A stretch of 64,000 nucleotides of DNA. Origin: an uncultured Gemmatimonadaceae bacterium (GTDB lineage Bacteria > Gemmatimonadota > Gemmatimonadetes > Gemmatimonadales > Gemmatimonadaceae). Below, one piece after another: positions 2,005 to 19,959 of this stretch. The stretch lies in assembly GCA_963817955.1 (NCBI GenBank), contig CAWFQK010000004.1:608001-672000 (forward strand). The letters are read 5' to 3'. How positions within the stretch are numbered: the stretch's first letter is position 1; every line of letters starts with the position of its first letter. Made by a program: the position numbers and the translations under genes. Under the pieces are notes generated by a model. That model was given only the letters and a program-made list of their open reading frames with translations. It was not told the origin of the DNA and did no database searches.

Positions 2005-3010
2005 TCACTCGGGCATTTGGTCCCTTCCCGCGGACGGGTCGTCCCCCCGCAAGAGTGCCTCGATCGCGCTTTCCCGGGCTGCGCGCTCAGCCACTTCATC
2101 CGCGACGCGCATTGCCGCCAGACGCTGCCGATCTCGCTGCCGACGCGCAATATAGAATGGCACGATCAGAACGAGCAGCAACAGACCGCCAATTGCCACG
2201 TTACTCACCAGGGCGAGCGCGCCGTACCGCCGCCGCGTATCGGCCCTCCAACGCGTCTCGAATCCGCTGAGCGTGAGCCCATACGTCGCGCGCATTGCGC
2301 GATCGAGGTCGCCTTCTCGCCGCCACGATTCGAAGAACCGTGACAACCCGCCATCGGGATCGAGCGACGCCAGTTCGACCACCGCGCGGTACGCGAGGGC
2401 ATACGCGTTCTCCGCCGTCGTGGAGCCACCGTTGAGCTGTACATCGAGCTCAGCGAACGTCGGCGACCCGCGCAACGCCAGCGCAATGTTCGCCGCCAGT
2501 GCATCCTCGCGACGCCATTCGCGCGCGGCATAGCTCGCGTAACCTTCATCGAACCAGCGTGGCGGCTGATCGCCGAGGTATTCGTGCAGCGCGAGGTGTG
2601 CGAGTTCGTGTCGGAAGACCTCGCTTGGATCGCCGGCATCCGCGCCGGCGCCGCGGCCCTGCATCACGATACGTCGCGAGTCGGGGAAGGTGATCGCCGC
2701 GCCCCATTCCGGGGCTTCGGGCCCCGCCCATTCGCGGAAACGGCGCGCATCGGGCGCGATCGCCAGCAGCACGTGTTCATGTGGCCGCGGCAGCCCGGGA
2801 AACGTATCGGTGCGCTGCGCCTGCTCGAGCAGCGACGTCGCCAGCACAGCTTCCGTGGGATAGAAGACGGCCGTGAACCGCCCACGATCGATGCGTTTGG
2901 GGGCATCGGCTTGGGACACGGCGCACGAAACACGGGACACGGGAAAAAGCAGCAGGAGTGTTGCGACCGTCGCAGCCAGCCACCGCGTGACGCACGACCT
3001 GCGGAGCAGG
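2005..3010 (-). CDS. Peptidase MA-like zinc metalloprotease with N-terminal signal/TM and C-terminal TM; start codon uncertain
   Basis: HELAH (HExxH) followed by WFDEGYASY (third-ligand Glu); hydrophobic N- and C-terminal segments. No clean ATG/GTG near the upstream stop. Confidence 0.75.
2914..2941 (-). repeat. Four degenerate heptamers (CGTGTCC family) inside the signal-peptide coding region
   Basis: Coding strand CGTGTCC CGTGTTT CGTGCGC CGTGTCC. Confidence 0.55.
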
Positions 3011-3014
3011 TGCC

Positions 3015-3875
3015 CTACGGTTCGCCCCCCGCCTCCACGGTCTTCAGAACCTCCGCGCACCGTTTTCCCCACGGGGTGAACTTGTTCGCCGCGAAACCGG
3101 CTCGCCATGTCTCGATTGCCTCGGCCCGCTGCCCGTTGAACCAGTACGCGCGACCGAGCTCATAGTACGCCTCGATCAAGTTCGGCCCGAGCGCCAGCGT
3201 CTTCTGGAAGAAGGTCTGTGCATCCTCGAACATGTCACGCTCGAGATACACCAACCCGAGATAGAAGTGCGCATACAGCAGTGCCTTCTTATCATTGCCC
3301 AGCCTGATGGCGCGTGACAGGTGCTCGATCGCTTCGCCGAATATGCCTTTCTTGAGACAGATGTAACCCACGTTGATGCGGGCGAGCGCATTCTGCGGCT
3401 CCCGCACGAGCACTTTCTGAAAATTGAGCAGTGCGTCGTCGAACTTGTCCTGCAGCATCTGCGCCCAGCCCAGCAGTGATTCCGCCTGCGGATCGTTCGG
3501 CGCAAGCTCCAGCGCCTTCATCAGGGCCTGCTCTGCGCCGGCATGGTCGCCGAGCGAAATCTTGCTCCATCCCTTCTCAATGAACGTCGAGGCGCCAATG
3601 TGGTCGGCGTGCACCACGGGCTTTTCACCAATGAACGCGGGCGCGAGCGATGGCTGCGCGCCTTTCACGCCTTTCACGCTTTTCCACGTCTCGACGAGCT
3701 GCAGCACTTCTGCTTTGAGCACGACGAGATCCGTGAGCTCCTGCTCGACGCTCTTGAACAGCACGCCGATATCGGTCTTCAGCGCACTGAGGTCGGCTGC
3801 GGCGGCAGGTGAGGCGAGGCGGACGCGGAGCTCGTCACGGCGCACCCGCAGGGCATCCACCAGCCGCTCAGCCAC
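3015..3875 (-). CDS. TPR protein with N-terminal coiled coil
   Basis: Repeated TPR motifs (ALELAPNDPQAESLLG, LVREPQNALARINVG, LALGPNLIEAYYELG); GTG start overlaps the cheW stop. Confidence 0.85.
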   Translation of the reverse strand: MAERLVDALRVRRDELRVRLASPAAAADLSALKTDIGVLFKSVEQELTDLVVLKAEVLQLVETWKSVKGVKGAQPSLAPAFIGEKPVVHADHIGASTFIEKGWSKISLGDHAGAEQALMKALELAPNDPQAESLLGWAQMLQDKFDDALLNFQKVLVREPQNALARINVGYICLKKGIFGEAIEHLSRAIRLGNDKKALLYAHFYLGLVYLERDMFEDAQTFFQKTLALGPNLIEAYYELGRAYWFNGQRAEAIETWRAGFAANKFTPWGKRCAEVLKTVEAGGEP

Positions 3876-4353
3876 GAACAGTAACCTCGGCGGCTCGCAC
3901 GGTGCGCTCGAAGACGATGCGATCGGCGGTGGACAGCACACGGTCAACGTCGAGAATCACCACGAGCTGGTCGCCCGTTTTCACGATGCCGCGAACGAAC
4001 TCGGAAGCAAGGCCGCGGAAGAGAGCCGGCGGCGGCGAGACGCTCGTCGCTGGCACCGCGGCCACTTCCAGCACGGCATCGACGATCGCACCGACGCAGC
4101 CATCCGCGGTGTTCAGGACCAGGATGCGCGTGGAGGACGTGACCGGCGTCTCGGGCAGCTCCATGCGTCGACGCATATCGACGGCAGGGATCACCGCGCC
4201 ACGGTGCTCGAACACGCCTGCGATCCACGCAGGCAGATCGGGCACGTTGCTTGGCGCTGCGTAGCGCAGCACCCGATCCACCGCAAAGATGTCGGCGGCG
4301 AACCGGTCCAGCCCCAAGCGGAAGGTGACGAGCTTCACGACGTCGGTCTTCAT
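3868..4353 (-). CDS. cheW: Chemotaxis coupling protein CheW
   Basis: LVTFRLG...VPDLPAWIAGVFEHRGAVIPAVDMRRRM...GAIVDAV...ILDVDRVL. Confidence 0.9.
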   Translation of the reverse strand: MKTDVVKLVTFRLGLDRFAADIFAVDRVLRYAAPSNVPDLPAWIAGVFEHRGAVIPAVDMRRRMELPETPVTSSTRILVLNTADGCVGAIVDAVLEVAAVPATSVSPPPALFRGLASEFVRGIVKTGDQLVVILDVDRVLSTADRIVFERTVRAAEVTVRG

Positions 4354-4811
4354 GCGATCTCTCCTGGCCCTTCACCCGTCAAAACGGACACGGCCGCCAC
4401 CGCCAGCAACGCGTCCGCGTTGAGCACCGCGATCAATTCTGCTCCACGACGGACGACGCCCGCCAGCATTCCATCCGACGACTGATTGCCCGGCACGGCG
4501 AGCAGCTCCCGGGCCTCGACAGTGATTGCGTCCTGCACATCGTCGACGGCGAAGCCGGCTCGCCGTTCATCGCGTGCGAATAGCAGCAGCACCCCATCCG
4601 CCCGTCCGCCGACGTTCAGGAGCGACCGGGGGTCATATATGGTGACCAGCGCGCCGCGAATAGCCGCGATACCGAGGACCGATGGCGGCGCGTCGGGGAC
4701 AGGATGCATCGCCGGCAAGTCCATCACTTCTTCCACGGATGCCAACTCGACGGCAAAGCGCTCGCGTCCCAATCGAAAGACGAGAAGCCGCGCCGCACCG
4801 TCACGGAACAT
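4350..4811 (-). CDS. cheW: CheW-like protein
   Basis: LLVFRLGRERFAV...VPDAPPSVLGIAAIRGALVTIYDP...GFAVDDV; ATG at 4811 overlaps the cheB stop. Confidence 0.85.
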   Translation of the reverse strand: MFRDGAARLLVFRLGRERFAVELASVEEVMDLPAMHPVPDAPPSVLGIAAIRGALVTIYDPRSLLNVGGRADGVLLLFARDERRAGFAVDDVQDAITVEARELLAVPGNQSSDGMLAGVVRRGAELIAVLNADALLAVAAVSVLTGEGPGEIA

Positions 4812-5868
4812 GCCGCAGCGCCTCCACCATCTCGCTGATGACCGGGGCGATCTCGTGCAGCGGGGCGACGCGATCGGCGCCCGCATGCTGCAGCGCCATC
4901 TGCGGCATGCCGAAAATCGTCGCGGTGGCGCGATCCTGCACGATAGCCCGGCCTCCGGCTTCGCGGATCAAACGGGTCCCTTCGCTGCCGTCTCGCCCCA
5001 TGCCAGTGAGCACGACGGCCACCGTCGCCGCACCAAACACCTCCGCCGCAGAGCGGAACAATCGGTCGGCTGCGGGACGCACGCCCCAGATCGATGGCGA
5101 TGTATCGAGCACGATCGTCGGACCATCGGGGTCGCCGCGCACCCGCATGTGGTAGCCGCCGGGCGCCAAATAGACGTTGCCATGCACAACGGGCTCGCCG
5201 TCCTCGGCCTCGTGGATCCGGATCGGACTCAAGGTATCGAGCCGCTGGGCGAGACTCTTCGTGAACCCAGCCGGCATGTGTTGCACGATGAGCACCGCCG
5301 CGGGGAGTTCGCGCGGCAGATGGGGCATGATCGCCGCGAGCGCGCGCGGTCCGCCAGTCGATGACGCGATGACCACTGCGTGCGACGCGCGCGTGAGCGG
5401 ATCGATGCGCCGGACGCCCTCCAGCGAGGAACGCGCCGGCGTCTTCAGGCCGGCGAGGTTCGCCGCCGCCGCGCCGCGCAATGCGGCCACGAGACGATCG
5501 GCAATGAGTCCCACATCGAGGCTGATCGAGCCCGACGGCTTGAGCACGAAGTCCACCGCGCCCAGTTCGAGCGCCTTGAGCGTCGCCTCCTGCCCGCTGC
5601 GTGTCGTTCCGGCACTCAGCATGACCACCGCGCGCGGCGTTTCGCTCATGATATAGCCAAGCGCACTCAAACCGTCGAGTTCCGGCATGTCCACGTCGAG
5701 CGTGACAATATCTGGATCGAGCTCGTGAATCCGCTTGAGCGCGTCGAATCCGTTCCGCGCCGTACCCGCCACCACGAACTCTCCCGAGTCATCGACGATC
5801 TGCGAGGTCATGCGGCGCATGAACGCGCTATCGTCCACGACGAGGACACGCGGCTTGTCAGAGGACAC
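4801..5868 (-). CDS. cheB: Protein-glutamate methylesterase CheB (REC + esterase)
   Basis: REC: VLVVDDSAFMR, TLDVDMP, FVLKP. Esterase triad motifs SSTGG, VQHMP, TGMGRDG. Confidence 0.96.
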   Translation of the reverse strand: MSSDKPRVLVVDDSAFMRRMTSQIVDDSGEFVVAGTARNGFDALKRIHELDPDIVTLDVDMPELDGLSALGYIMSETPRAVVMLSAGTTRSGQEATLKALELGAVDFVLKPSGSISLDVGLIADRLVAALRGAAAANLAGLKTPARSSLEGVRRIDPLTRASHAVVIASSTGGPRALAAIMPHLPRELPAAVLIVQHMPAGFTKSLAQRLDTLSPIRIHEAEDGEPVVHGNVYLAPGGYHMRVRGDPDGPTIVLDTSPSIWGVRPAADRLFRSAAEVFGAATVAVVLTGMGRDGSEGTRLIREAGGRAIVQDRATATIFGMPQMALQHAGADRVAPLHEIAPVISEMVEALRHVP

Positions 5869-6349
5869 GCGATCCCCCGCGCAGCGAGCGCACTTCCACG
5901 CGGCCATCCGCTAGAAAGAGGTACACGCTGCGGCCGTAGTCGCTCCCGGTGTCCTCGGCCACGATCGGCAGGTTGGCGCCGGCGAGCACTTCGCGCACCG
6001 CAGTGACGTTCCGTTCCCCAATGTTCATGCCGCCCGCCGGAAGGACGTTGCCAAACATACTCGCGCCGCCGGCGATTCTCGCTCGAATGCGCCCGAGGCT
6101 GGCGCCGAGGTCCCGCATCTCGGCGAGCACCAGCGGAACCACCGTCTGTGGAAATTTCGCCGGATTGGATCGATCGCGCGACATGCTCTCGCTTGGCAGC
6201 AGCACGTGAGCCAGGGCGCCAACGCGCGCCACGGCGTCGTACAGAACAATCGCCACGCACGATCCGAGGCCGATCGTCGAGATCGTCCCGTCGGCGGCGA
6301 CGGCATAGTCGGCGACCTTCACGCGCCGCTCGACGGGAATGGCCGTCAT
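5858..6349 (-). CDS. cheD: Chemoreceptor glutamine deamidase CheD
   Basis: TIGLGSCVAI...LAHVLLP...IAGGASMF...IGERN...EDTG motifs. Confidence 0.93.
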   Translation of the reverse strand: MTAIPVERRVKVADYAVAADGTISTIGLGSCVAIVLYDAVARVGALAHVLLPSESMSRDRSNPAKFPQTVVPLVLAEMRDLGASLGRIRARIAGGASMFGNVLPAGGMNIGERNVTAVREVLAGANLPIVAEDTGSDYGRSVYLFLADGRVEVRSLRGGSRVL

Positions 6350-7170
6350 AGGCGCCGAAAGATTCGTTGCCGCGCATCGACGGGCGCGAAGTGGGTGCGC
6401 GCACGTCCGAGCAGGGTCTCGACCTTGCCGAGCACGAGGAATCCGTCCGGCGCCAGCGCGTCGTAGAAAGTATTGAACAGCCGCTCCTGCGTATCCCGGT
6501 CGAAGTAAATCAACACGTTTCGGCACACGATGAGGTCATGCGGCCCCGGCGGCGGCGGCTCGCTGAGCAGATCGCGTCGCTCGAACCGCACCATGCTGCG
6601 AATGGCTGAGGATACGGCGAAGGGCGACGCGACCGCGAAGTACTCCTGTCGCAGATCGCCAGGCGTGTCGTCGAAGTCGCCTGGCTCGAATTGTCCGCGC
6701 CCAGCCGCGGCGAGACATTGCTGGTCGATGTCGGTTCCCACCACCCGCACGCGCCCAATCCGGGCGAGCGAATCGTTGAGGGCCGCGTACCGATGAAACA
6801 GAATGGCGAGCGAATACGGCTCGTCTCCCGACGAGCACCCCGCGCTCCACACGCGAATCGCCGGCTGCTCGCGGCGCCAGAGCGCGGGCACCACGTGCTC
6901 CGCCATCGCCGCGTAGGCATCCCAGTTTCGAAAGAGTTTCGTGACATTGATCGTCAACGCATCGAGCAGCCGGTCGTATTCTGCGGCGTCCCGATCGAGG
7001 AGTCGCGCGTACTCGTCGTAGGTGTGCACACCGCGCGCGCGCATGCGCACGGCAATCCGCCGGCGCAGACACTTCTCCTTGTACGACGCACAGCCGAAGC
7101 CGCGCTCCGCGGAGATCTTGTGCGTCAACTCCAAGAACCCAGCCTGCTCCTGCTCCTGCTCCGGCATCAA
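6346..7170 (-). CDS. cheR: Protein-glutamate O-methyltransferase CheR
   Basis: LTINVTKLFR, WSAGCSSGDEPYS, GTDID, DLIVCRNVLIYF, GFLVLGKVE. Confidence 0.95.
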   Translation of the reverse strand: MMPEQEQEQAGFLELTHKISAERGFGCASYKEKCLRRRIAVRMRARGVHTYDEYARLLDRDAAEYDRLLDALTINVTKLFRNWDAYAAMAEHVVPALWRREQPAIRVWSAGCSSGDEPYSLAILFHRYAALNDSLARIGRVRVVGTDIDQQCLAAAGRGQFEPGDFDDTPGDLRQEYFAVASPFAVSSAIRSMVRFERRDLLSEPPPPGPHDLIVCRNVLIYFDRDTQERLFNTFYDALAPDGFLVLGKVETLLGRARTHFAPVDARQRIFRRL

Positions 7171-8786
7171 TACACCTGCCGAATCGATTCCAGATTCGTA
7201 CGCACGATTGCGTTGTTCGGATCGAGCTCGAGCGCCCGCTCCCAGCAGCGTAGCGCTTCATCGCGCTCCCGCCGCCGCAGGCGAATGTTGCCGAGCTTGA
7301 GATAGACGTCGGCCCCGAGATCCGGGTCCGCCTTCGTCGCGCGCAGGTACGACTCGAGGGCGTCGTCGTACCGGCCGCCGCGGTAGTGCAGGTCGCCCAG
7401 GTTCTTGTGGAGCTGCGGCATGCCGGGATCCTCATGGAGGCCGCGTTCGATGGTCTCACGCGCATTGTCGTAGGCCGTGCTGCGTTCGAGCGCCGCGGCG
7501 AGGTTGTTCCAGAGCGCCGCGACGTGCGGATGGGCCGACACGCCCTCTGTCAGCACGATGGCGGCGCGCGACGTGTCTCCGGCGAGCGCGGCCGCAAGCC
7601 CCATGTAGTGGTACCACGCCGCAGTCGGCGGACGGGTGCCGAACAGCGTCCGCGCCGACGCGAGCAGCGCGTCGGCCTCCGCGACATCGCCCGTCATGAG
7701 CGTCACCACACCGAGCGACGTCTGCACGCGCGGATCGGCCGAACCACCGCGCCGCGCGGCCTCCTCGAGCGCTGCACGCGCTTCCTCGTATCGATTGAGC
7801 CGCTCCAGCGCGTAGGCCAGGTTGTGGAACACCGCCATGTGCGCGCCCGGTTGCGCCGCCGCCTCGGAGAATGTGGCGGCCGCGTCTTCCCACTTCTGCT
7901 GGCGGGCCAGCACGAGACCGATGTAGAACCGCGCCACCGCGTCGAATCCGCGCAGATCGAGCACACGCCGGAATTCCCGCAACGCCTCATCGAGCATATT
8001 GGTCTTGTAGAACGCGATCCCGAGGTTGCGGTGTTCCTCGATGCGCCCTTCCGACGGCGCGGGAGCCGGCGGCGCCGTCTTGCCAATGCGATGGATGAAC
8101 CCCGTGGTGAGCAGGCCGTACAACGCCTTCCCGACCTCGAACTCCACGAGGCCTGACTCGTCGATGATTGCTTGCACGTCGCGCGTGCCGTCGACCAACT
8201 CGAGCACGGCACGCTGCTCGTCGGTGAGCGCTGTTTCGCTCGATAGGACCTTGGCGCGATCTATCTCGAAGACAATGTCGAACGTCGGAATCTTCTTCTC
8301 GACGAGACCCCACTCATCGACTCGCCGGGCACCCTCGAGCAGCAGCGACTCCGGATTGATCGATACGACATGGTCATGCTGATCCGGCGCGACGTCAGCC
8401 TCGAAATTGAATGTCCCCTGGTTCCAGGTGAACAGGAAGTACACCGCTTCCTGAATCTGCACATGGATGGCGTCGTGCAACTGCTGCAGACTGAGCGCGC
8501 CCTGCTCCACCAGCAACTCGCCAAGCCGCTTGTCGCGCCGGCGATCCTGCAGCGCCACACTGGCCTCCAACCGCGCCTGCGTGACGATGCCGCTCTTCAC
8601 CAGCATGTCGCCGAGTCGATCGCGCCGGTTCACGATGGAGGCGTAGCAGATGCGGCCCTTTTCGAAATAGACGTACCCAAAGCTGTTCCGGTGCGTGACG
8701 CTCAGGCACCCCGTCTTCTTCCCCATCGCCAGAAGCTGGAGAACGTCGGGAAGGCTCGCTTCCTTGAGGCTGCCGCGGATGGCCAT
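7167..8786 (-). CDS. DUF4388 (PatA-N-like) + MshEN-like motif + TPR protein
   Basis: AIRGSLKEASLPDVLQLLAMGKKTGCL...WNQGTFNF...ESLLLEGARRVDEW is the DUF4388 signature; two RLGxxL repeats; many C-terminal TPRs. Confidence 0.85.
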   Translation of the reverse strand: MAIRGSLKEASLPDVLQLLAMGKKTGCLSVTHRNSFGYVYFEKGRICYASIVNRRDRLGDMLVKSGIVTQARLEASVALQDRRRDKRLGELLVEQGALSLQQLHDAIHVQIQEAVYFLFTWNQGTFNFEADVAPDQHDHVVSINPESLLLEGARRVDEWGLVEKKIPTFDIVFEIDRAKVLSSETALTDEQRAVLELVDGTRDVQAIIDESGLVEFEVGKALYGLLTTGFIHRIGKTAPPAPAPSEGRIEEHRNLGIAFYKTNMLDEALREFRRVLDLRGFDAVARFYIGLVLARQQKWEDAAATFSEAAAQPGAHMAVFHNLAYALERLNRYEEARAALEEAARRGGSADPRVQTSLGVVTLMTGDVAEADALLASARTLFGTRPPTAAWYHYMGLAAALAGDTSRAAIVLTEGVSAHPHVAALWNNLAAALERSTAYDNARETIERGLHEDPGMPQLHKNLGDLHYRGGRYDDALESYLRATKADPDLGADVYLKLGNIRLRRRERDEALRCWERALELDPNNAIVRTNLESIRQVY

Positions 8787-10708
8787 CAGCGCAGATCCTC
8801 GATCAGGCGCGTGCCGGCGTCGGGCCACTGCCACAGAATCTTTTCGCCGTCGAGAAAGAACGTGTCGGCCGTCGTGCGCATTGCCGCGGCACGGGGCGCG
8901 TCGCCCTGCTCCGGTTCGAGCTCGGCACGAATGAACCCGATCGTCACCGGCACGGCCTTCACTTCGGCCGAGGCGACGATCCGGTTCGCGGCACCGATGA
9001 TCTCGCGCACGCTGGCAACCGGTCGGTCGGCAAGATAGTTCAGCATCTCGCCGGTGGGGTCGAGTCCCAGGTCCTTGAGGAATCGCGCAAAGAGCCGCTC
9101 GCGCAGCGACCGGTCGGGCGACTGCATCGGTACGACCAGGCCGCCCTCGAACCGCGAGCGCAGTCGTTCCTCGAGGCCCGACAACTCGCGTGGCGGTCGA
9201 TCGCTGGCGAAGACGAGCTGCTTGCCGTCGGCATACAGCGCGTTGAATACGTGAAACAGCTCTTCCTGCGTGCGTTCCTTGCCGGCCACGAACTGCACGT
9301 CATCGAGCAACAGCGCCGAGGCAGCGCGATATCGCGCCCGCCAACGATCCACTGTTCCCTCCTGCATCGCGGCGATCAGTTCGTCGATGAACAGCTGGGC
9401 GGGCACGCAGGCGACACTGCCGGTGCCCGCCGACGCTTGCACGAGTCCATTGCCGATCGCATTGAGGAGGTGGGTCTTGCCCACCCCGCTCGGCCCGTGA
9501 ATGAACAACGGATTGTACCGGAGTGCCGGGACGGCGACGATGGCGTCGGCGGCCCGCACGGCAAGCTGATTGCACGCCGCCACTTCGAATCCGGCGCGCG
9601 TGAAGGCGGCCGACGGTCCCGGCGGCGGCGTCGACGTGCGAAGCGCACGCTCGAGCAGTTGCCCGGCCTCCTCGAGCCGATCCGGGTCGTGAAAAGCATC
9701 GTGCTCGGCCAACGCGCGGTCGAGACCTGCCACCTGCTTTTCGAGATCACGCAGCTTCGAGACGCTTCCTTCGAATTCGCGCAGCACCGTCTCGACGCTC
9801 GTCGGCGGCGCAGGATCCTGGAGCATGCGTTCGAGCGCAGCGGCGCGATACCCCTCGCTGTTCCAGTAGGCGATCGCCTCCGTCAGGCGGGTTCTCCACT
9901 GCTCGAGATGCTGTGCGACGGCCGCCGACATATTCGAGAGGAAATTCGCGAACTCTCCGAGCGCCTGCGGTGGATTGGCGCGCGGGCGCTGCTCGGCGAG
10001 GTCGCCGAGGATGCCAATGACCGCGCCGGGGTCGATCTGTTCGCCGCCGAGCGTCTGGAACGCGATGATCCGATTGAGCGCGCCCTGCAGCTCGCGCACG
10101 TTCTTGAATTCCAGACGTCCCACTTCCTCGATGACGCCGGGCCGGAAGCGGACCCCGCGCTCCTCGCACTTGGCCTTGAGAATAGCCATGCGCGTTTCAT
10201 AATCGGGTGCCCCCATGTCGACGATCAGACCACCCGACAGCCGCGTGATCAGCCGCTCGTCCACGTCGCTGATCTCCGACGGCGGCCGGTCGCTGGTCAT
10301 CACGATCTGCTTGCCGGCGGCGGTGAGCGCGTTGAAGATGCGCAGCAACTGCGTCTGCGTCTCGCGATGGCCGGTCAAGAACTGCACGTCGTCGATCAGC
10401 AGCACGCCGATGCCGACATACCGGTTCTTGAACGGTTCTGCCTCGCCGGCCGCGATCGCCTCGTGCAACTCCGCCACGAAGTCGTCGAGCGTGACGAACG
10501 CGACGAGCAGTCCCGTGTGGCGCTGTGTCACGTGATTGCCGATCGCGCTCATCAGGTGCGTCTTGCCGAGCCCCGAACTGCTGTACATGAACAGCGGGTT
10601 GTACACGGCGCCCGGCGCGTCCGCCACCGCGCGCGCCGCGGCCACAGCGAGCCCGTTGGCCGAGCCGACGATGAAATTATCAAACCGGAGCTTCAGGTCT
10701 ACCGGCAC
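8786..10708 (-). CDS. Tandem DnaA/Hda-type AAA+ ATPase (two ATPase modules, no DNA-binding domain IV)
   Basis: Module 1: RFDNFIVGSAN, YNPLFMYSSSGLGKTHL, LLIDDVQFL, SDRPP, NVRELQGAL. Module 2: YNPLFIHGPSGVGKTHL, LLLDDVQFV, SDRPP, RLRSRF, SVREIIGA. GTG at 10708 follows GGAGAGG. Confidence 0.88.
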   Translation of the reverse strand: MPVDLKLRFDNFIVGSANGLAVAAARAVADAPGAVYNPLFMYSSSGLGKTHLMSAIGNHVTQRHTGLLVAFVTLDDFVAELHEAIAAGEAEPFKNRYVGIGVLLIDDVQFLTGHRETQTQLLRIFNALTAAGKQIVMTSDRPPSEISDVDERLITRLSGGLIVDMGAPDYETRMAILKAKCEERGVRFRPGVIEEVGRLEFKNVRELQGALNRIIAFQTLGGEQIDPGAVIGILGDLAEQRPRANPPQALGEFANFLSNMSAAVAQHLEQWRTRLTEAIAYWNSEGYRAAALERMLQDPAPPTSVETVLREFEGSVSKLRDLEKQVAGLDRALAEHDAFHDPDRLEEAGQLLERALRTSTPPPGPSAAFTRAGFEVAACNQLAVRAADAIVAVPALRYNPLFIHGPSGVGKTHLLNAIGNGLVQASAGTGSVACVPAQLFIDELIAAMQEGTVDRWRARYRAASALLLDDVQFVAGKERTQEELFHVFNALYADGKQLVFASDRPPRELSGLEERLRSRFEGGLVVPMQSPDRSLRERLFARFLKDLGLDPTGEMLNYLADRPVASVREIIGAANRIVASAEVKAVPVTIGFIRAELEPEQGDAPRAAAMRTTADTFFLDGEKILWQWPDAGTRLIEDLR

Positions 10709-10730
10709 GCGACGATTCCTCTCCACGTCG

Positions 10731-11336
10731 CTAGGGCGCCGCGCCCGCGCCCGCGCTCAGACGCTTGAGCACGAGCTCCGAGATCGAGCGGAGTGTCTCG
10801 AAGACCCCGGGGCCGTGCAGGGCGTCGGCGCCAAAGTCCGGGACGCCTCGAAAATTCAGGGCGTCCGATAGCTCGGGGACGCCAAGGATGAGATCGGCCG
10901 GCAAGTCCTGCTTGTTGTACTGGAGCACGAGCGGTACGGTGCGCGCATCGATCCCCTGCTCGGCGAGATTTGCGTGCAGGTCCTGAAGGCTCTCGATGTT
11001 CTCCTCCACCTGCCGCGCCTGACTGTCGGCCACGAACACCACGCCATCTGCGCCCTGCAGCACGAGCTTGCGAGTCGTCTGATAGTAGACCTGGCCCGGC
11101 ACCGTGTAGAGCTGGAACTTGGTCGTGAATCCGGAGATGGTTCCGAGGTCCAGCGGCAGGAAGTCGAAGAACAGCGTCCGGTCGGTCTGCGTCGCGAGCG
11201 ACACCATCTTGCCTTTGCGATCGTCCGGGACCTGCCCATAGATGTAGTGCAAATTCGTCGTCTTTCCGGACCGGCCCGGCCCGTAGTAGACAATCTTGCA
11301 CGTGATCTCGCGGGTGGCGTAGTTGACGAGAGACAA
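10731..11336 (-). CDS. mglA: MglA-family small Ras-like GTPase
   Basis: KIVYYGPGRSGKTTN, TDRTLFFDFLP, LYTVPGQV, GADGVVFVADS, YNKQD. Confidence 0.95.
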   Translation of the reverse strand: MSLVNYATREITCKIVYYGPGRSGKTTNLHYIYGQVPDDRKGKMVSLATQTDRTLFFDFLPLDLGTISGFTTKFQLYTVPGQVYYQTTRKLVLQGADGVVFVADSQARQVEENIESLQDLHANLAEQGIDARTVPLVLQYNKQDLPADLILGVPELSDALNFRGVPDFGADALHGPGVFETLRSISELVLKRLSAGAGAAP

Positions 11337-11355
11337 GGGTGTCGAGCGGCAAGGG

Positions 11356-11826
11356 TTAGCGACCGAACATCGAAGCGAGGTTGCGATGCAGCTCAGTTTC
11401 GAAGTTCACGTCGAACATGGGTTCGCGAAGAAGCGGAAGCGGCGGCGCGGCAGCGGCCAGATCGCGGCACAACTCGTCGAAGAACAGACGCACCAGGCCG
11501 AGCGAACTTGCCTGGTCAAAGACGGTAAGACAAATGTAGGCACCGCGGCACGTATCCACCGGCGCGAGATAGAGTTGCTTCTCCAAGCCTTCGTGGTGCA
11601 AGCCGTGAAATGGACGTCCATCCAGCTGCCGGCCAAGCTCCCCCGCGGTTGCGTGCACTGCCGATGCGAGCGCACACGCGGTCATGACGTCCACAGCACG
11701 CGTAAAGCCCGCCTGCGCCACCACTTGACCTGACGGGTGCAGGAGCAGCGCGAGACGCGCGCGCGCCTCGTCGACGAACCGCTTGAGCGGCGGTTCGACC
11801 CACGGCTCGACCGTGGCGATGATCAC
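11356..11826 (-). CDS. MglB-like Roadblock/LC7 protein
   Basis: Roadblock fold pattern (ALLLHPSGQVVAQAG...ALASA...TVFDQASSLGLVRLF); immediately upstream of mglA. Confidence 0.75.
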   Translation of the reverse strand: MIIATVEPWVEPPLKRFVDEARARLALLLHPSGQVVAQAGFTRAVDVMTACALASAVHATAGELGRQLDGRPFHGLHHEGLEKQLYLAPVDTCRGAYICLTVFDQASSLGLVRLFFDELCRDLAAAAPPLPLLREPMFDVNFETELHRNLASMFGR

Positions 11827-12173
11827 GGAAGAAACTCCAGCGCCTTCAGCAGTTCCACGCGAATCAAACCCACGTTGGCCGCAGCCTCAGCCACGACGAC
11901 GATGACGAGGTCACTGCGCCCGGTACCCGCAGCGCAGATCCGTCCCCGCTCGGCGTCGAGCTGGAGAAAGCCGACAGATCCGAGCCGCGCCGCGTTCGCC
12001 GACAACCGCGCCTTGCGGTAAATCGACGCCGCCAACGCCGCAACGCGGTCGCCATCCTGACCGAAGCGCAGGTTGGCGTCCACTACGAGACCGTCACTCT
12101 GCGAGACGATCAAGCTGGCTCGTACGCCACGGAGACGGGTCAGCGATTCGAGCAGATCAGCAAAGGGACTCAT
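11823..12173 (-). CDS. Roadblock/LC7 protein
   Basis: LRGVRASLIVSQSDGLVV...VAALAAS...ANVGLIRVEL. Confidence 0.85.
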   Translation of the reverse strand: MSPFADLLESLTRLRGVRASLIVSQSDGLVVDANLRFGQDGDRVAALAASIYRKARLSANAARLGSVGFLQLDAERGRICAAGTGRSDLVIVVVAEAAANVGLIRVELLKALEFLP

Positions 12174-13012
12174 GCGCTCCCTCCCACTCCCCCTCCCCCT
12201 CCCCCGCCGTCGCCCTGGCCCTGCCGCAGCCAGTCAGACGCCCGTTCGACGCACCGATTGAGCAGCCGCCGCAGGAGGCCCAATGGCGTGGCATGCGAGG
12301 CAGCGACAACGACGAGGCTGTGACCCATTGCCGGCGCCATGGCGACCACGGCAGCCTGCGTTTCGAACACGATTGACCGCCATTCGCCAATGTCGAGATG
12401 CCGCGTGGCCCGTAGCACCTCGTCGGAAATGCCGCTCAGTTGTGCACCGATCTCCTGCGCAAGATCGTTTCCTTCCGAATCGGGGTACGACCCACCGACC
12501 ACGTAGCCGCTGACGTCGAGCAGCAAGGCCGTCTGTCCCTGATCAACTAGCACATCCAGGAACAGCATTTGGGGGTCGGTTGCCGGGGGTGCCTCGACCA
12601 CGGGCGCCGGCGCACTGCCGGACGACCGCCGCACCATTTGCAGCGCAGCGGCTACGTCTCCGCCGCCGGCGGCCGCCGCCCGAATGAGATACTGTTCTGC
12701 GTCATCGAAACGGTGTTGTTGAAAACAGACGAAGCCGAGGCCCTTCATGGCGCCAACGTGGCTTGGCACAAGGCGGAGGACCGTCTGCCATTCCTCTGAC
12801 GCGCGCGCAAGGTCGTGGCGATCCACCGCGATTCGCGCTACCAGGTCGTGCGCCTCGGCGTTCGCCGGATGGCGCTCCAATCCGCGGAGCGCGATTTTGA
12901 GCGCGATTTCCACTTGACCCTGGCGGCGCAGGGCCTCGCTGAGCCGGAGGAATACCAGGCTCGATGGCTCGCGTGCCAGCTCGTCGCTCCACCCGTGGAC
13001 GTCGTCAGCCAT
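12170..13012 (-). CDS. TPR + Roadblock/LC7 fusion protein
   Basis: N-terminal TPRs (EPSSLVFLRLSEALRRQG...GLERHP); C-terminal ALLLDVSGYVVGG...IGAQLSG...TPLGLLRRLL; ends in a poly-Gly tail. Confidence 0.8.
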   Translation of the reverse strand: MADDVHGWSDELAREPSSLVFLRLSEALRRQGQVEIALKIALRGLERHPANAEAHDLVARIAVDRHDLARASEEWQTVLRLVPSHVGAMKGLGFVCFQQHRFDDAEQYLIRAAAAGGGDVAAALQMVRRSSGSAPAPVVEAPPATDPQMLFLDVLVDQGQTALLLDVSGYVVGGSYPDSEGNDLAQEIGAQLSGISDEVLRATRHLDIGEWRSIVFETQAAVVAMAPAMGHSLVVVAASHATPLGLLRRLLNRCVERASDWLRQGQGDGGGGGGGVGGSA

Positions 13013-13841
13013 CGGCGTGCGTCTCCAACACGCGCTGCAGCCGCGCGAGGGCATCGAGCGCATCCCGCGCTTCCGGCGAGCCCGGACCGTTCGGCGAGGC
13101 GCGGAGGAACTGTTCCACTGCCGTGCGTGCACTCGCCAACGCGCCGGTGACCATGCGCGCGGCCGACGTGAACATCGGCGTTTTCGGTGCGGGTTGCGCC
13201 GACTCCGGCAGGGCACGAGACGGGCAGCGCACGTCAACGATGCCAGTCGTCGCCAGACCGTAGGCGATCTTCGCAATCTCGAATTCGTCGCGGCCGAGCG
13301 CCGTGGCAATCGTGCGCACGTCACGCTCGCCGTCGATCATCGTCAGCACCTGCCATTCGTGCGGCAGCAAATCGAGCATGGCGCCCTGCCGGTCATGATC
13401 GACCTCCGCCAGTTCGGGGACGGCATCGACGTTCGGCACCACGTCGGCGATGCGCGACCATTCGTCAATGCGCCGAGCAGCCTCCATGAGGAGCGATTCC
13501 GTGGACACGGTGATCCCCGTGTTGGCCGGCATGTCGCTGCGCGCCCGTTCTTCGAACGAGAAGAAGCCTTCCCGCCAGGACATCAACTCGAACACGACGC
13601 TCTCCAGCTGCAAGCGCAGCTGCCGCTCCAGCTCCTTCCGCGAAATGGCGCCGGGTTCCGTGTGGGGGGGGGCTTTGCTGCGAATCGTCGCCTGAACCAC
13701 GCGTCCGCTGTCGAAATGCACCACGCCCTCGTCCTCGCGCAACGCAGAGTACACGCGGAGCATCCCCGTCTTCCGGCTCAGGTCGAGGAGCTGGAACACG
13801 TCGTGAATGCCGAGTTCGCGAAGGGGACCTTCAATGGCCAT
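13005..13841 (-). CDS. DUF4388 domain protein
   Basis: MAIEGPLRELGIHDVFQLLDLSRKTGML...WREGFFSF...ESLLMEAARRIDEW. Confidence 0.85.
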   Translation of the reverse strand: MAIEGPLRELGIHDVFQLLDLSRKTGMLRVYSALREDEGVVHFDSGRVVQATIRSKAPPHTEPGAISRKELERQLRLQLESVVFELMSWREGFFSFEERARSDMPANTGITVSTESLLMEAARRIDEWSRIADVVPNVDAVPELAEVDHDRQGAMLDLLPHEWQVLTMIDGERDVRTIATALGRDEFEIAKIAYGLATTGIVDVRCPSRALPESAQPAPKTPMFTSAARMVTGALASARTAVEQFLRASPNGPGSPEARDALDALARLQRVLETHADG

Positions 13842-13846
13842 GGGCG

Positions 13847-16540
13847 CTAGTCCTTCCGTCGCGGACCGAGGATGCGTTCCAGATCCGTCACCGTCCGGAT
13901 CTCCCGGCGCGCGCGACGCGCCCACTCCGACGTCGGCCCTAACTCCACGACGCGTTGCCACCGCTCGACCGCGCCGCGGTATCGGCGCTGTTCCGCCAGG
14001 ATGCTGCCTTCATGGAACAGCGCGCCGATATGCGACGGGTCGAAGCGCAGGACGCGAGCGAACGCCTGCACGGCATCGCGTTTGCGCCCGAGCGCGAGCA
14101 GAGTTTCCCCGAGTGCGATCAGCGCATCGAAGTGATAGGGATCGCGCTGCAGCAAATCGATCAGCTGCTCCAGCGCTTCAGCGGGGCGTCCAAGGCGCCG
14201 CCGCAACGTCGCGAGCTCCAGTGTCGCCTCGGCATACGTCGGTACGGCGTCGAGCGCGGCGACCAGCTCCTGTTCGGCTTCGCGGTTCTGCCCCTTTGCC
14301 TGTAACAAGCGCGCGAGCTGGAAACGCACCACCGCGAAATCCTGGTCGAGTTGCAGCGCATGGCGATATGCCGAGATCGCGCCTTCGTTATCGCCGAGGG
14401 ATCGGGCAATGTCGCCCATCTTCTGCTGCACGTCGGCGCGCATGGGCGCGGCGCGCCGCGCCGCATCGAGCACCGACAGCGCCGCCGCGGGATCGCCTGC
14501 TTCCGCGCAGGTGGTCGCCATGAGCATGAGCACATCCACGTCATCGGGACAATGGGTGAGCAGCTGCTGGGCGAGGGGACGGGCCTCCGCGGCGCGTCCG
14601 AGGCGGACGAGTGACGAGGCTTCCCCGATCGCGGCAGCGCGCCTTTCGGGTTCGAGCCGTAAGGCTTCGCGATACCGCTCGAGGGCCTCGCCGAACAGCC
14701 CTTGCTTGGCAAAGACGTCTCCAAGGAGCGTGAGCCCGTCGGCGCGCGCACCTCCGCGAGACATGGCGCGGCTGATCTCGGCCGAGGCGCGGTCGTACAA
14801 TCCTTTGGACAGGTAATCCGCCGCCATCGCGAACGGCGACGCATCCGTGCCGCGCGACGGCGTCACCGGCGACGGAAAGGCGACCGGCCTCAGCTCGGTG
14901 AAGAGCGTGTCGAGCGACTGGGCGTCGAAGCTGAAATCGGCGATCGACGCGTCGGCCAACCGCTCGCCGCCGAAATCCGGTCGAATCGAGAGGTCGGGGT
15001 CCTCGTACTCGACGTCCATGGCCAACTCGAACTTCTGCGGGACGTAATAGGGATCGAGCTCCAGCGCACGCTTGGTTTCGCGTAACGCGCCTTCAAAGTC
15101 ACCGAGGTTCGAGAGCGTGAAGCTCATGTTGTAGTGTGCTTCCGCAACGTCCGGCTTCGACTGGATCGACCGCGCGAACGCGTTCCGCGCATCATCGTAC
15201 TTGTGCAGCTCCGAGAGGACGAGCCCAATGCCGTTCCACGCGACGTGCTGTTCCGGCGCGTTCGTCAGCGCCCGGCGGTACGCATCGAGCGCGGCGGGAA
15301 ATCGTTTGCCGCGTGCAAGGAGGAGCGCCATGTTGAGGTGCGCCTTGACAAAGCTGGGCTGTTCGTCGAGCGCGGTGCGGAAGGCGCCGATGGCCTCGTC
15401 CACCGCACCGCGGTGATACAGCACGACGCCCAGGTTGTTGTGCGCAATGGCGTAGGTGGGCTCGGCCTGCAGGGCGTTCCGGTAGCTGGCCTCCGCGTCG
15501 GGGAAGCACCCATCCTGGTGCAGCGCCACGCCGCGCTCGTTCCACAGCTTGGGACTCGACGGCTGCCGCTCCAGCAACTCGTTGTACAGCGCGAGCGCCT
15601 CGTTCGGCTGTCGCATGAGCAGATGCATCTCGGCCATGGCCTGCAACACGAGATCGCGCTCCTCGCCCCGTTCCAGCGCGACACGGTATTCGCGCATCGC
15701 CTCGGGGAAATACCCGTTGCTGCGGAACGCGAGACCGAGATTGTAGCGCGCGAGTTGGCCTTCGCCCGACACCTGGAGCTCGCGCCTGGCTGGCGCGGGC
15801 CCATCCTCCGGTCGCGCCGCCCGCTGTTGGTCGATCGCCAAATTCGCGTGGGCGCGCGACAACGTGGGATTGAGCGCAATGGCGCGGCGGGTCACGGCCT
15901 GCGCGTCTTCATGCCGTCCCATGTCGCCCAGGACGAACCCCATCAGGTAGAGCGCGTCGTGGTTCTCGGGATTGCGCTCGATCGCCCGTTCCAGGGCCCG
16001 TAGTGCTTCGTCGTTCAGTCCGCGATGATAGAGCACTTCACCGAGCGAGAACTGCAGCAACGAGCTGTCGGAGTCGAGCGTGAGCGCGCGCTCGAGCAGC
16101 TGCTGCGCGCGTTCGATGTCGCCAGTCTCCTTCTCGGCCATCGCGAGCTGCAAGAGCGCGCCGACATCCGACGGGGTGACCTGCAGCAGCGCGCGGAATT
16201 CCTCCGCCGCATCGTCCTGCTGGCCGAGCAGCGCATAGGTGCGACCGAGCTCCCAGCGCGCATCACGATCCTCGGGGCGCAGCCGGAGGCGCTCTTTGAG
16301 TTCCGGAATACGAGTATCGTAATAGCCCGTGTTGAAGTAGGCGATTTCGAGATTCCGTTGCGCGACCTGCATCTTCTGGTCGAGGTCCAGCGCCTTCATG
16401 AACGCGGCGACGGCCTCCCCGTACAGCCCCTTGTTGTAGTACAGCACCCCCAGATTGTTGTGCGCCCCGGCATCCGACGGATCGATCCGCCGGGCAAACG
16501 AACGTAAGACGTCGCGATCGCGTTCCGAGGTGAGTGCCAC
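13847..16540 (-). CDS. Large multi-TPR protein (897 aa)
   Basis: Many TPRs (AHNNLGVLYY, ARWELG, ARYNLG, LWNERG, AHYNMS) interrupted by an acidic non-TPR linker. Confidence 0.9.
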   Translation of the reverse strand: MALTSERDRDVLRSFARRIDPSDAGAHNNLGVLYYNKGLYGEAVAAFMKALDLDQKMQVAQRNLEIAYFNTGYYDTRIPELKERLRLRPEDRDARWELGRTYALLGQQDDAAEEFRALLQVTPSDVGALLQLAMAEKETGDIERAQQLLERALTLDSDSSLLQFSLGEVLYHRGLNDEALRALERAIERNPENHDALYLMGFVLGDMGRHEDAQAVTRRAIALNPTLSRAHANLAIDQQRAARPEDGPAPARRELQVSGEGQLARYNLGLAFRSNGYFPEAMREYRVALERGEERDLVLQAMAEMHLLMRQPNEALALYNELLERQPSSPKLWNERGVALHQDGCFPDAEASYRNALQAEPTYAIAHNNLGVVLYHRGAVDEAIGAFRTALDEQPSFVKAHLNMALLLARGKRFPAALDAYRRALTNAPEQHVAWNGIGLVLSELHKYDDARNAFARSIQSKPDVAEAHYNMSFTLSNLGDFEGALRETKRALELDPYYVPQKFELAMDVEYEDPDLSIRPDFGGERLADASIADFSFDAQSLDTLFTELRPVAFPSPVTPSRGTDASPFAMAADYLSKGLYDRASAEISRAMSRGGARADGLTLLGDVFAKQGLFGEALERYREALRLEPERRAAAIGEASSLVRLGRAAEARPLAQQLLTHCPDDVDVLMLMATTCAEAGDPAAALSVLDAARRAAPMRADVQQKMGDIARSLGDNEGAISAYRHALQLDQDFAVVRFQLARLLQAKGQNREAEQELVAALDAVPTYAEATLELATLRRRLGRPAEALEQLIDLLQRDPYHFDALIALGETLLALGRKRDAVQAFARVLRFDPSHIGALFHEGSILAEQRRYRGAVERWQRVVELGPTSEWARRARREIRTVTDLERILGPRRKD

Positions 16541-16576
16541 GGGTGAATGCTGGGTACGGGTCGCCGGGGCGAACGA

Positions 16577-17194
16577 TCAGGCCACGCGCACGGCTTTGAG
16601 AATCGCCTGCAAGGAGGCCGAATCCGGCAGCAGCAGGAAGAAGCCGTGGAGCCGTTCGCCGATCTCATCCATCAGGAATTCACTTTCGACACAGAACACA
16701 TAATCCTTGTCGCTGCCGAACTGGAGATACGCCGTCGTGAGCACCGCCGTCGACATGTCGATCGCCAGACTGGGCGGCGACGGCAGCAGCATCATGCCCA
16801 TGAAGTCGCTCAGCGCATTCATGTACGCCGAGCTGAGAATGTTGCCGGCTTCCTTGATTGCCGACCGCTCCATCTCCGAGAACTCGTCGCCGGTACTCGG
16901 CCGGCGGAGCAGCATGCCCGCGAGGTGAATGGCGGTGCGCCGTGGAAACACGAGCAGCGTGCGCCCCGTGAGATCGCCCATCATGTGCATGAGCACCGCC
17001 GCCACCGCCTCATCGGGCTCCCCGATCTGCGGCGGGACGTCCTCGAGCCGCGACACGTTGATCCTGGGCACACTGATCATGATCGTCTCGCCGATCATCT
17101 GCGACAGCGCCGTCGCCGCATGCCCGGCGCCGATATTCGCCACCTCGCGCAGCGCGTCCAGTTGGATGGCTTTCAGCGAGCGAAGATCTTCCAT
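16577..17194 (-). CDS. cheC: CheC phosphatase
   Basis: Two active-site motifs DALREVANIGAGHAATALS and SAIKEAGNIL; ends FFLLLPD. Confidence 0.93.
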   Translation of the reverse strand: MEDLRSLKAIQLDALREVANIGAGHAATALSQMIGETIMISVPRINVSRLEDVPPQIGEPDEAVAAVLMHMMGDLTGRTLLVFPRRTAIHLAGMLLRRPSTGDEFSEMERSAIKEAGNILSSAYMNALSDFMGMMLLPSPPSLAIDMSTAVLTTAYLQFGSDKDYVFCVESEFLMDEIGERLHGFFLLLPDSASLQAILKAVRVA

Positions 17195-17200
17195 GGTTCC

Positions 17201-19126: not shown

Positions 19127-19149
19127 GAGATCCGGGCATCGCGCTGCGG

Positions 19150-19512
19150 TTATCCGAGCACACGCTGCACGGCCTCGAGCACGCGGCTCGGCTGGAACGG
19201 CTTGACGACGAAGTCTTTCGCTCCCGCCTGAATGGCCTCGACGACGAGCGCCTGCTGGCCCATCGCGCTGCACATGAGGATCTTGGCCTCCGGGTCGAGT
19301 TTGCAGATCTCACGCACCGCGTCGATGCCGCCCATATCGGGCATCACGATATCCATCGTCACGAGATCGGGCCGGAGCTGCTGATACCGCTCCACGGCCT
19401 CCACCCCCGTCTCCGCCTCGCCGACGATTTCGAACCCGGCCCGCGTGAGGATATCGCCGACCATGGTGCGCATGAAGATCGCGTCGTCGCAGATGAGAAC
19501 AGTCTGACTCAA
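19150..19512 (-). CDS. cheY: Response regulator CheY
   Basis: ICDDAIFMR, DLVTMDIVMPDMGG, CSAMGQ, FVVKPF; TTG start after GGAGG. Confidence 0.94.
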   Translation of the reverse strand: MSQTVLICDDAIFMRTMVGDILTRAGFEIVGEAETGVEAVERYQQLRPDLVTMDIVMPDMGGIDAVREICKLDPEAKILMCSAMGQQALVVEAIQAGAKDFVVKPFQPSRVLEAVQRVLG

Positions 19513-19538
19513 GAAATGCCTCCAGGAAGTACGAAGTA

Positions 19539-19958
19539 CTACGAGAGCAGGACCTGTGAGATAAGGGCATCGACATCGAGAATGACAACGGCTGCCTCAT
19601 CCAACGTTGCTACGCCGCGCACGATGGGGCCACGCGACCGCGACATGTCGTCGCGCTCATCGATCGCCAACTCGCGAACGTCGACCACCTCGTCGACCAC
19701 CATCCCCACCAGCCGCTCGCGGTAGCGCACGAGCAGGATCGACCCGTCGGCAATGGGCGCGCGCGACGCATCGAGGCGCACTCCCAGGTCGAGCACCGTG
19801 ATGATCGTGCCACGCATGTTGATCAGACCACGCACATGAGCCGGCGCACCAGGGAGCCGCGTCATGCGGCGCAGGGGAATGATCTCCTGAGCCGCCGTGA
19901 GGTCGCACCCATAGACTGTCGCTCCCACGCGGAACAGCAGCGTGGGAGGGAGCGCCAC
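19539..19958 (-). CDS. cheW: CheW
   Basis: TRLPGAPAHVRGLINMRGTIITVLDL...GMVVDEV...ILDVDAL; start uncertain. Confidence 0.9.
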   Translation of the reverse strand: MALPPTLLFRVGATVYGCDLTAAQEIIPLRRMTRLPGAPAHVRGLINMRGTIITVLDLGVRLDASRAPIADGSILLVRYRERLVGMVVDEVVDVRELAIDERDDMSRSRGPIVRGVATLDEAAVVILDVDALISQVLLS

Positions 19959-19959
19959 T

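Follow-up and report, generated by a model that had tools for sequence, protein, structure and literature searches.

Two DnaA-type AAA+ modules in one protein, encoded between mglA and a PATAN-TPR gene in a chemosensory gene array of Gemmatimonadota

We analyzed a window of 64,000 nucleotides (nt) from an uncultured Gemmatimonadaceae bacterium (GenBank assembly GCA_963817955.1, contig CAWFQK010000004.1, positions 608,001 to 672,000). Its minus strand carries a gene for a protein that contains two AAA+ modules of the type that forms domain III of the replication initiator DnaA (the tandem gene and tandem protein hereafter). This gene lies between mglA and a gene whose product combines a PATAN (DUF4388) domain with TPRs (PATAN-TPR), inside a conserved array of chemosensory genes. 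The open frame reaches a further upstream GTG at 10726 (8786..10726, minus strand, 646 amino acids, aa), and all residues are numbered here in the 646-aa form. The GTG at 10708 nevertheless appears the likelier start, since it is preceded at 9-nt spacing by a Shine-Dalgarno-like site and is the start used by the 640-aa database form P0002; both observations favour the start coordinate given in the original prediction, which was made from the letters of the window alone. The gene and its parts are as follows.

8786..10708, minus: tandem DnaA-domain-III gene, 640 aa from GTG at 10708, stop TGA at 8788-8786
10717..10723, minus: Shine-Dalgarno-like GGAGAGG, 9 nt before GTG 10708, sequence read directly
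10031..10705, minus: module 1, residues 8-232, DnaA-type AAA+ core and lid
10559-10582, minus: module 1 Walker A, SSSGLGKT
10388-10393, minus: module 1 Walker B, D112/D113
10241-10243, minus: module 1 box VII R162 (box VII, R158/R162; sensor I, D146)
10094-10096, minus: module 1 sensor II, R211
9959..10030, minus: variable spacer 1, residues 233-256 (21-76 aa in relatives)
9611..9958, minus: conserved, predicted all-helical linker domain, residues 257-372 (111-116 aa in relatives)
8918..9589, minus: module 2, residues 380-603, second DnaA-type AAA+ core and lid
9473-9496, minus: module 2 Walker A, GPSGVGKT
9299-9304, minus: module 2 Walker B, D475/D476
9152-9154, minus: module 2 Arg finger, R525
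9005-9007, minus: module 2 sensor II, R574
8861..8917, minus: variable spacer 2, residues 604-622 (8-58 aa in full-length relatives, longer in lid-less variants)
8789..8860, minus: conserved C-terminal tail, residues 623-646, ending FFLDGEKILWQWPDAGTRLIEDLR (24-25 aa in relatives)

Pfam searches returned two separate PF00308 (Bac_DnaA) matches, at residues 12-170 (E = 2.3e-54) and approximately 381-532 (E = 1.4e-49). The NCBIfam model TIGR00362 (DnaA) was matched by each half only, over model positions 102-346 and 113-338 of 437, a span that is domain III plus lid and excludes domains I/II and IV. Both modules cover PF00308 from end to end, so the initiator-specific insert is kept, and the nearest solved structures are those of DnaA (8bv3/8btg, E ~1e-54; 2z4r; 1l8q/2hcb/3r8f). 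The Walker A lysine, the Walker B acidic pair, the sensor II arginine and the putative Arg finger are found in both modules of the window's protein, together with the motifs LLIDDVQF and LLLDDVQF, two copies of SDRPP, DERLITRL and EERLRSRF, and NVRELQGALNR and SVREIIGAANR. Two complete domain III copies, each with Walker A and B, SDRPP, an arginine-finger region and a sensor II VRE, had been proposed, and all of these elements were recovered.

The remaining DnaA domains are absent. No DnaA_N domain was detected by Pfam search of the tandem protein, even at E <= 1, and Bac_DnaA_C (PF08299, the helix-turn-helix domain IV) was not detected at E <= 1 in any third of it. The N-terminus begins at the motif that opens domain III. 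When the linker was compared by profile-profile alignment (hhalign) to nine full-length DnaA proteins, no hidden domain I, II or IV was found; only the last 35 columns matched, and they correspond to the start of module 2. The predicted lack of domains I and IV thus held, as did the expected HMMER outcome of two Bac_DnaA matches and none to Bac_DnaA_C or DnaA_N.

Source databases name members of this family 'chromosomal replication initiator protein DnaA', 'DnaA/Hda family protein' or 'DnaA ATPase domain-containing protein'. Against TIGR00362 (cut-off 343.9), the tandem protein as a whole reaches 511.6 bits and its modules alone 277.1 and 236.8 bits; the equivalog cut-off is passed only because the scores of the two modules add up, and this sum accounts for the first of the three names. 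The summed score is an annotation pitfall, and one fragment is even labelled DnaC.

A canonical dnaA was located elsewhere in the genome, as the original prediction had anticipated: a 481-aa frame with both PF00308 and PF08299, on contig C3 at ~101-102 kb, directly followed by dnaN at C3:102558, with the tandem gene on contig C4. In the complete relatives G067 and G136, the chromosome begins at dnaA, and the tandem gene is found at positions 1.69 and 1.88 Mb, respectively. Since it has neither domain I nor IV, and since the canonical dnaA-dnaN pair lies on another contig, the tandem gene is not the replication initiator of this genome. Two weaker PF00308 matches in the genome belong to identical 273-aa IstB-like frames (L004 and L005, G000:C4:1382147-1382452 and G000:C1:550882-551187), each with a 397-aa frame next to it, an arrangement that suggests two copies of an IS21-type element.

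Modules 1 and 2 share 42% identity, and each is 41% identical to domain III of the genome's own DnaA. We calculated a quick maximum-likelihood tree of 96 rows (33 module 1, 33 module 2, 28 DnaA and 2 IstB sequences; L041, from the unpublished genome G097, was left out). Module 1 forms one clade (99*), as does DnaA (81), and module 1 together with DnaA is split from module 2 (100*); neither module nests within the phylum's own DnaA clade (96*). The IstB outgroup, on a branch of length 6.35, joins the tree within module 2, which we treat as long-branch attraction, and neither the root nor the order of duplication can be read from this tree. The duplication of the modules is old, with both evolving faster than DnaA.

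Hda is a single module of ~230 aa that carries an N-terminal clamp-binding motif and acts with DnaN. The tandem protein resembles Hda/HdaA in its derivation from DnaA, its AAA+ fold and its lack of the DNA-binding domain IV, and differs in its two modules, in Hda scores far below those with DnaA models, and in gene context. Indeed, the Hda cut-off (TIGR03420, 194.8 bits) was reached neither by the whole protein (166.0) nor by its modules (83.6 and 85.7), the PDB Hda entry 5x06 matches only at 1e-6, and inspection by eye of the first 20 residues (VERNRRVPVDLKLRFDNFIV) revealed no Q-L motif of the QL[SD]LF type, which we take to define the clamp-binding motif. IstB/DnaC proteins belong to the same AAA+ clade and give weak secondary matches (PF01695; NF038214, 98.8 bits); the tandem protein remains far under the 200-bit cut-off of NF038214, and its neighbours are mglA and PATAN-TPR, with no transposase or helicase gene.

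The anatomy of the protein was examined in an alignment of 33 representatives divided into seven parts, on which the motif counts below are also based. Mean pairwise identity is 0.39 for module 1 (residues 8-232), 0.38 for the linker (257-372), 0.38 for the module 2 core (380-535), 0.37 for the module 2 lid (536-603) and 0.42 for the tail (623-646), and 0.19 for both spacer 1 (233-256) and spacer 2 (604-622). The linker is thus as conserved as the ATPase modules, with F259, F262, G292, L298, D347, P348 and A354 as its conserved residues, and is a domain of fixed length. The original prediction of a helical linker of about 130 aa is supported as to its helical nature, the predicted model being all-helical (pLDDT, predicted local distance difference test, 84.7), and has to be corrected in that the region is not a loose spacer. 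No Pfam family covers the linker, with only sub-threshold ABC_tran_CTD coiled-coil matches in 10 of 27 members; an ESM Atlas search gave no usable match, and Foldseek found no PDB structure at E <= 0.001 for the model (best, 0.96). VIA-align matched the model to generic helical bundles, an EzrA spectrin-like repeat scoring best with Z 6.5, which is under the meaningful level for helical models. The model thus has no specific fold match, a result that does not indicate a new fold.

The protein had also been expected to stop soon after module 2. This proved incorrect: the variable spacer 2 and the conserved 24-aa tail follow. The tail consensus approximates FFLDxEKvvWxWPxxxxRLIEE, with E628, K629, W634, P635 and E643 each kept in 30-32 of the 33 representatives; a strict form of the pattern is present in 55 of 77 representatives of at least 540 aa, and the tail persists in the lid-less and single-module forms described below.

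The two modules differ in the constancy of their catalytic residues. The Walker A lysine is kept in 33/33 representatives in module 1 and 32/33 in module 2, as is the first Walker B aspartate (33/33 and 32/33); the second Walker B aspartate (31/33 and 29/33) and the sensor II arginine (31/33 and 30/33) are nearly as constant. The sensor I aspartate is found in 20/33 module 1 sequences and 5/33 module 2 sequences, and the second box VII arginine, which we assume to be the Arg finger by homology with DnaA, in 17/33 and 28/33, respectively. The serine that replaces the first glycine of the module 1 P-loop (SSSGLGKT), which had been singled out, is present in the window and is not a trait of the family, this position being G in 21, S in 6 and A in 6 of the representatives. 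Among 59 tail-bearing representatives of 540-1000 aa, 40 have a P-loop in both modules, 17 in module 1 only and 2 in module 2 only, the last two probably being N-terminally truncated.

Further variants lack parts of module 2. In forms of 550-613 aa its lid is missing, and box VII is followed by a low-complexity spacer and the tail. Single-module forms, consisting of module 1, linker and tail without module 2, occupy the slot between mglA and PATAN-TPR in two genomes outside the order, G049 (family f5; locus L150, G049:C18 897-2084) and G106 (family f8; locus L149, G106:C18 ~2272-3300), and five more, of 345-442 aa, occur among the representatives of relatives clustered at 50% identity. These single-module forms keep their own module 1 Arg finger in 6/7 cases and the sensor I aspartate likewise in 6/7, compared to 17/33 and 20/33 in the tandem forms; the G106 copy has a degenerate Walker B, sensor I and sensor II. 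Since lid-less, P-loop-less and single-module forms all keep module 1, linker and tail, these parts constitute the conserved core, with module 2 as a variable partner: complete in some forms, without its lid or P-loop in others, or missing altogether. Its most constant feature is the Arg finger.

The tandem gene is tightly packed between its neighbours, which are listed here with the enclosing array.

2005..19994, minus: enclosing conserved array of ~19 genes
7167..8786, minus: PATAN(DUF4388)-TPR gene, 539-aa form, ATG at 8786-8784, encoding a putative direct partner
10731..11336, minus: mglA, Ras-like polarity GTPase, directly upstream (5ymx match at 1.9e-75)
11356-11826, minus: Roadblock/LC7 gene, MglB-like (6h5b_B match at 3.3e-10)
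11823-12173, minus: second Roadblock/LC7 gene

The TGA stop of the tandem gene overlaps the ATG of PATAN-TPR as TGATG, and the TAG stop of mglA (10733-10731) lies 22 nt before the tandem GTG at 10708. The array reads cheW, cheY, cheA, cheC/X, TPR (897 aa), PATAN, TPR+Roadblock, Roadblock and MglB-like Roadblock, followed by mglA, the tandem gene, PATAN-TPR, cheR, cheD, cheB, cheW, cheW, TPR and an MA-type peptidase; a full che set therefore brackets a nine-gene block of MglA, Roadblock, PATAN and TPR genes. No gene for a methyl-accepting chemotaxis protein (MCP) is found inside the array. The genome has two cheA genes, and because the other one is located on contig C7 beside three flagellin genes and MCP genes, the array constitutes a second, non-flagellar chemosensory system. 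The Pfam scan revealed no extra domain in the middle part of PATAN-TPR. The genome also holds nine T2SSE-family ATPases.

This arrangement is conserved. In the loci of relatives, mglA is directly upstream and PATAN-TPR directly downstream in 29/29 cases, with the MglB-like gene in 26/29, and the same ~19-gene array was found in 6 distant relatives. Of 592 loci from a scan of genome contigs with PATAN-TPR, the 80 best were analyzed, and all of these carry titles of Gemmatimonadota or of an unclassified 'bacterium'. Among these 80, the distance from the end of the tandem gene to PATAN-TPR is below 150 nt in all 72 loci with room for it, and mglA is adjacent in 62 of 69 by a strict rule, the other 7 being overlapping matches. 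By this conserved, translationally coupled position between mglA and PATAN-TPR, the tandem gene is a member of the MglA/PATAN-TPR/che array.

Near relatives (119, from clusters at 90% identity) share 74-82% identity over 636-646 aa, and their named taxa are Gemmatimonadetes or Gemmatimonadaceae. Full-length relatives extend down to ~31% identity among the 50%-identity representatives, the named distant members being Gemmatimonadales or Gemmatimonadota. In a phylum sample of 151 genomes, with strong matches defined as E <= 1e-67, the tandem gene is carried by ~95; the tallies take in two unpublished genomes (G057 and G097), and no statement rests on those alone. Strong matches were found in 21/31 genomes of family f1, 67/71 of f2 (plus G144, where a diverged 644-aa copy was verified), 2/2 of f3, 1/1 of f4, 1/1 of f5, 1/16 of f7 and 1/2 of f8, and in 0/26 of f6 and f9-f12. 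An assembly chimera, against which the original prediction had cautioned, is contradicted by the recurrence of the architecture in so many relatives.

The phyletic profile of PATAN-TPR across the same 151 genomes is shared with that of the tandem gene. G116 is the only one of the 16 f7 genomes with either gene, and it has both: in a slot between rluD/ileS and the MA peptidase, as in the window, it carries the tandem gene and PATAN-TPR only, without mglA or che genes. Natural losses were observed as well. In genus g5 (G036, G047) and in G114 the cluster-type mglA is kept and the tandem gene is cleanly absent. In G084 a remnant (L067, G084:C26 6647-7423) consists of overlapping, out-of-frame module 1 and linker pieces with module 2 gone, between an intact mglA and a full-length PATAN-TPR. 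In all six tandem-less genomes that keep a PATAN-TPR homologue (G036, G047, G052, G072, G074 and G114), the homologue ends at query residue 462-489 of 539; the PATAN-TPR proteins of 97 genomes, including the tandem-bearing ones without a contig-end cut, reach query residue 523-539. The part absent in tandem-less genomes comprises the last TPRs, which form the densest run of invariant residues. Locus L062 of G127 (G127:C1 9023-11019) has two frames in place of the tandem gene, one of 232 aa for module 1 and one of 430 aa for the linker, module 2 and tail, which may reflect a real split, a frameshift or decay; an internal deletion is seen in the neighbouring PATAN-TPR (422 aa).

In the order, most genomes carry two paralogues of mglA. 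The cluster type is 72-89% identical to the mglA of the window, and the second, found elsewhere in the genome in frames of ~228 aa, is ~62-65% identical over residues 1-161.

Some relatives built on paired DnaA domain III modules carry additional domains. P0194 (738 aa) has a C-terminal receiver (REC) domain instead of the tail, and P0185 (1990 aa) and P0189 (1876 aa) are composed of an N-terminal MshEN domain, a DnaA domain III module, ~1250 aa of coiled coil and a second such module; a metagenome scan with P0189 returned no match. The fusion partners are thus domains of signalling or pilus-ATPase type rather than replication domains.

Taken with the separation from dnaA-dnaN, the fixed gene context and the natural losses, these fusions lead us to propose that the tandem protein is a non-replicative, ATP-controlled adaptor or switch acting with PATAN-TPR, MglA and a second, non-flagellar che pathway, a reading to which we assign a probability of roughly 0.6. 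The original prediction had offered two roles, a repurposed initiator fold acting as a signalling scaffold and an Hda-like regulator tying replication initiation to MglA-defined polarity. The former fits the fixed operon slot, the translational coupling, the co-occurrence with PATAN-TPR and the REC and MshEN fusions; the latter finds no support, with Hda scores under the cut-off, no linkage to dnaA-dnaN and loss of the gene where DnaA stays.

In DnaA oligomers, the ATP site is completed head-to-tail by an Arg finger. In the proposed adaptor, module 1 would be the nucleotide-sensing site, binding and perhaps hydrolysing ATP, and would likewise be completed head-to-tail. The Arg finger would be supplied chiefly by module 2 in tandem forms, either in the same chain or across chains, and by module 1 of a second molecule in single-module forms. 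The ATP state could be transmitted through the conserved helical linker to the conformation or self-association of the protein. The tethered C-terminal tail may serve as a docking peptide for the last TPRs of the co-translated PATAN-TPR, a site suggested by the co-loss of the tandem gene and those TPRs, and PATAN-TPR would provide the link onward to MglA and to the output of the che pathway, probably at a polar machine of the pilus type or another kind. A bolder version, which we hold to be doubtful, regards ATP as a third nucleotide switch in the polarity circuit, on top of the MglA GTPase and the Che phosphorelay: the module 2 finger in the module 1 site would gate the docking tail, and docking on PATAN-TPR would decide when the pathway engages the polar machine, for instance a pilus motor. 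On that reading, the DnaA lineage would have its first described role outside replication, with an evolutionary series from single-module to tandem forms.

Several observations weigh against an adaptor of this kind. The single-module forms imply that pairing of modules 1 and 2 within one chain is not a universal mechanism, and the G116 pair without an adjacent mglA implies that the tie to MglA is not obligatory. In some lineages the tandem gene is dispensable for the cluster, as seen from its deletion in g5 and G114 and its decay in G084. The genomes with co-loss of the PATAN-TPR C-terminus belong to three genera within a single family; these are not independent and represent at most three events. 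Finally, the ~41% identity of both modules to the genome's own DnaA and the grouping of module 1 with DnaA make mixed assemblies with DnaA conceivable.

This last point is the starting place for an explanation in which the protein regulates replication or the cell cycle, its modules inserting into or capping DnaA-ATP oligomers at oriC in an Hda-like or DnaA-titrating manner and so linking polarity to initiation. It gains from the box VII and sensor II arginines that DnaA uses for protomer contacts, which the window modules keep, from the placement of module 1 with canonical DnaA in the tree (100* branch) and from the DnaA entries that are the nearest structures. Set against this are the Hda results (model scores under the cut-off, 5x06 at only 1e-6, no clamp-binding type motif at the N-terminus), the unlinked position and repeated loss of the gene while DnaA stays, the degeneration of module 2 in many relatives and fusions to REC and MshEN rather than replication domains, and we consider such a regulator very unlikely. 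DnaA domain III also binds single-stranded DNA, and the modules might do the same as a nucleic-acid-directed ATPase, for example as a nucleoid anchor or in pilus-linked DNA uptake. The retained initiator-specific insert and the nine T2SSE-family ATPases are in keeping with this; the array contains no DNA-uptake or DNA-processing genes, its neighbours are all signalling or scaffold genes, and module 2 is dispensable in many relatives, which leaves only a slim chance for it.

A further alternative is a direct role on MglA, in which the ATPase would bind MglA, holding it in the GTP form or aiding nucleotide exchange (GEF) or GTPase activation (GAP), with PATAN-TPR as a mere neighbour. The position of mglA, 22 nt upstream and adjacent in all examined loci of relatives with room, would agree with it, as would the fact that tandem-less genomes mostly have the second mglA paralogue only (G052, G072, G074, G085, G089, G091 and G043). 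Yet cluster-type mglA is kept without the tandem gene in G036, G047 and G114, G116 has the tandem and PATAN-TPR pair without an adjacent mglA, and the change that correlates with loss of the gene is found in PATAN-TPR and not in mglA; we judge this role unlikely. As for a decaying duplicate with no function of its own, the frameshifted G084 remnant, the split gene of G127 and the clean losses in a few genera are what it would produce. It is hardly credible in view of intact frames in ~95 of 151 genomes, full-length relatives down to ~31% identity, nucleotide-binding residues that are invariant or nearly so, and modules, linker and tail that hold 37-42% pairwise identity, versus 19% in the spacers.

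Compared to DnaA, both modules are full AAA+ domain III units with lid, Walker A and B, sensor I, box VII arginines and sensor II. The tandem protein differs in having two modules per chain, no domains I, II and IV, and a helical domain and tail of its own, and its gene is accessory, not adjacent to dnaN, lost in some lineages and placed in a signalling context. The array as a whole is reminiscent of the Frz-MglA/MglB/RomR-SgmX system of M. xanthus, where a che pathway is likewise genetically joined to MglA, Roadblock proteins and TPR scaffolds; that system has no AAA+ ATPase, whereas the Gemmatimonadota array adds PATAN-TPR and a DnaA-type ATPase in one operon. SgmX binds MglA through its C-terminal TPRs and also recruits PilB to the pole (PMC11580455), a precedent for C-terminal TPRs as a docking site. 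PatA-type PATAN regulators of cyanobacteria (PixE, PixG) offer a second parallel, PATAN being a che-like output module that binds PilB1 and PilC, as described in 10.1101/2021.06.11.447907; the PATAN domain considered here differs in being fused to TPRs instead of a receiver domain and in being paired with a DnaA-type ATPase. The proximity of MglA/MglB genes to PATAN genes was noted in PMC4316618, where the portion available mentions no DnaA-like gene.

Full-text literature searching yielded no paper connecting a DnaA-like protein to MglA, PATAN, chemosensory operons or Gemmatimonas. To our knowledge, the only described roles of DnaA-type AAA+ modules are in replication initiation and its control (DnaA, Hda). 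New here are the recognition of the linker as a domain, the C-terminal tail, the asymmetry of the modules, the lid-less and single-module series, the co-loss of the PATAN-TPR C-terminus and the argument from the second cheA. If the protein is indeed a non-replicative adaptor, the initiator ATP switch would be reusable for signalling after loss of all DNA-recognition parts. The protein would also supply the MglA polarity system with an ATPase, a component missing from it in Myxococcus. Misnaming the protein as initiator DnaA may mislead origin prediction and dnaA counts in Gemmatimonadota genomes.

A minor observation concerns another frame of the array. The 384-aa TPR+Roadblock open reading frame (12170-13324, minus) overlaps the PATAN frame (13005-13961, minus) by ~320 nt; relatives match it only from residue ~90-105, and its true start is probably further downstream.

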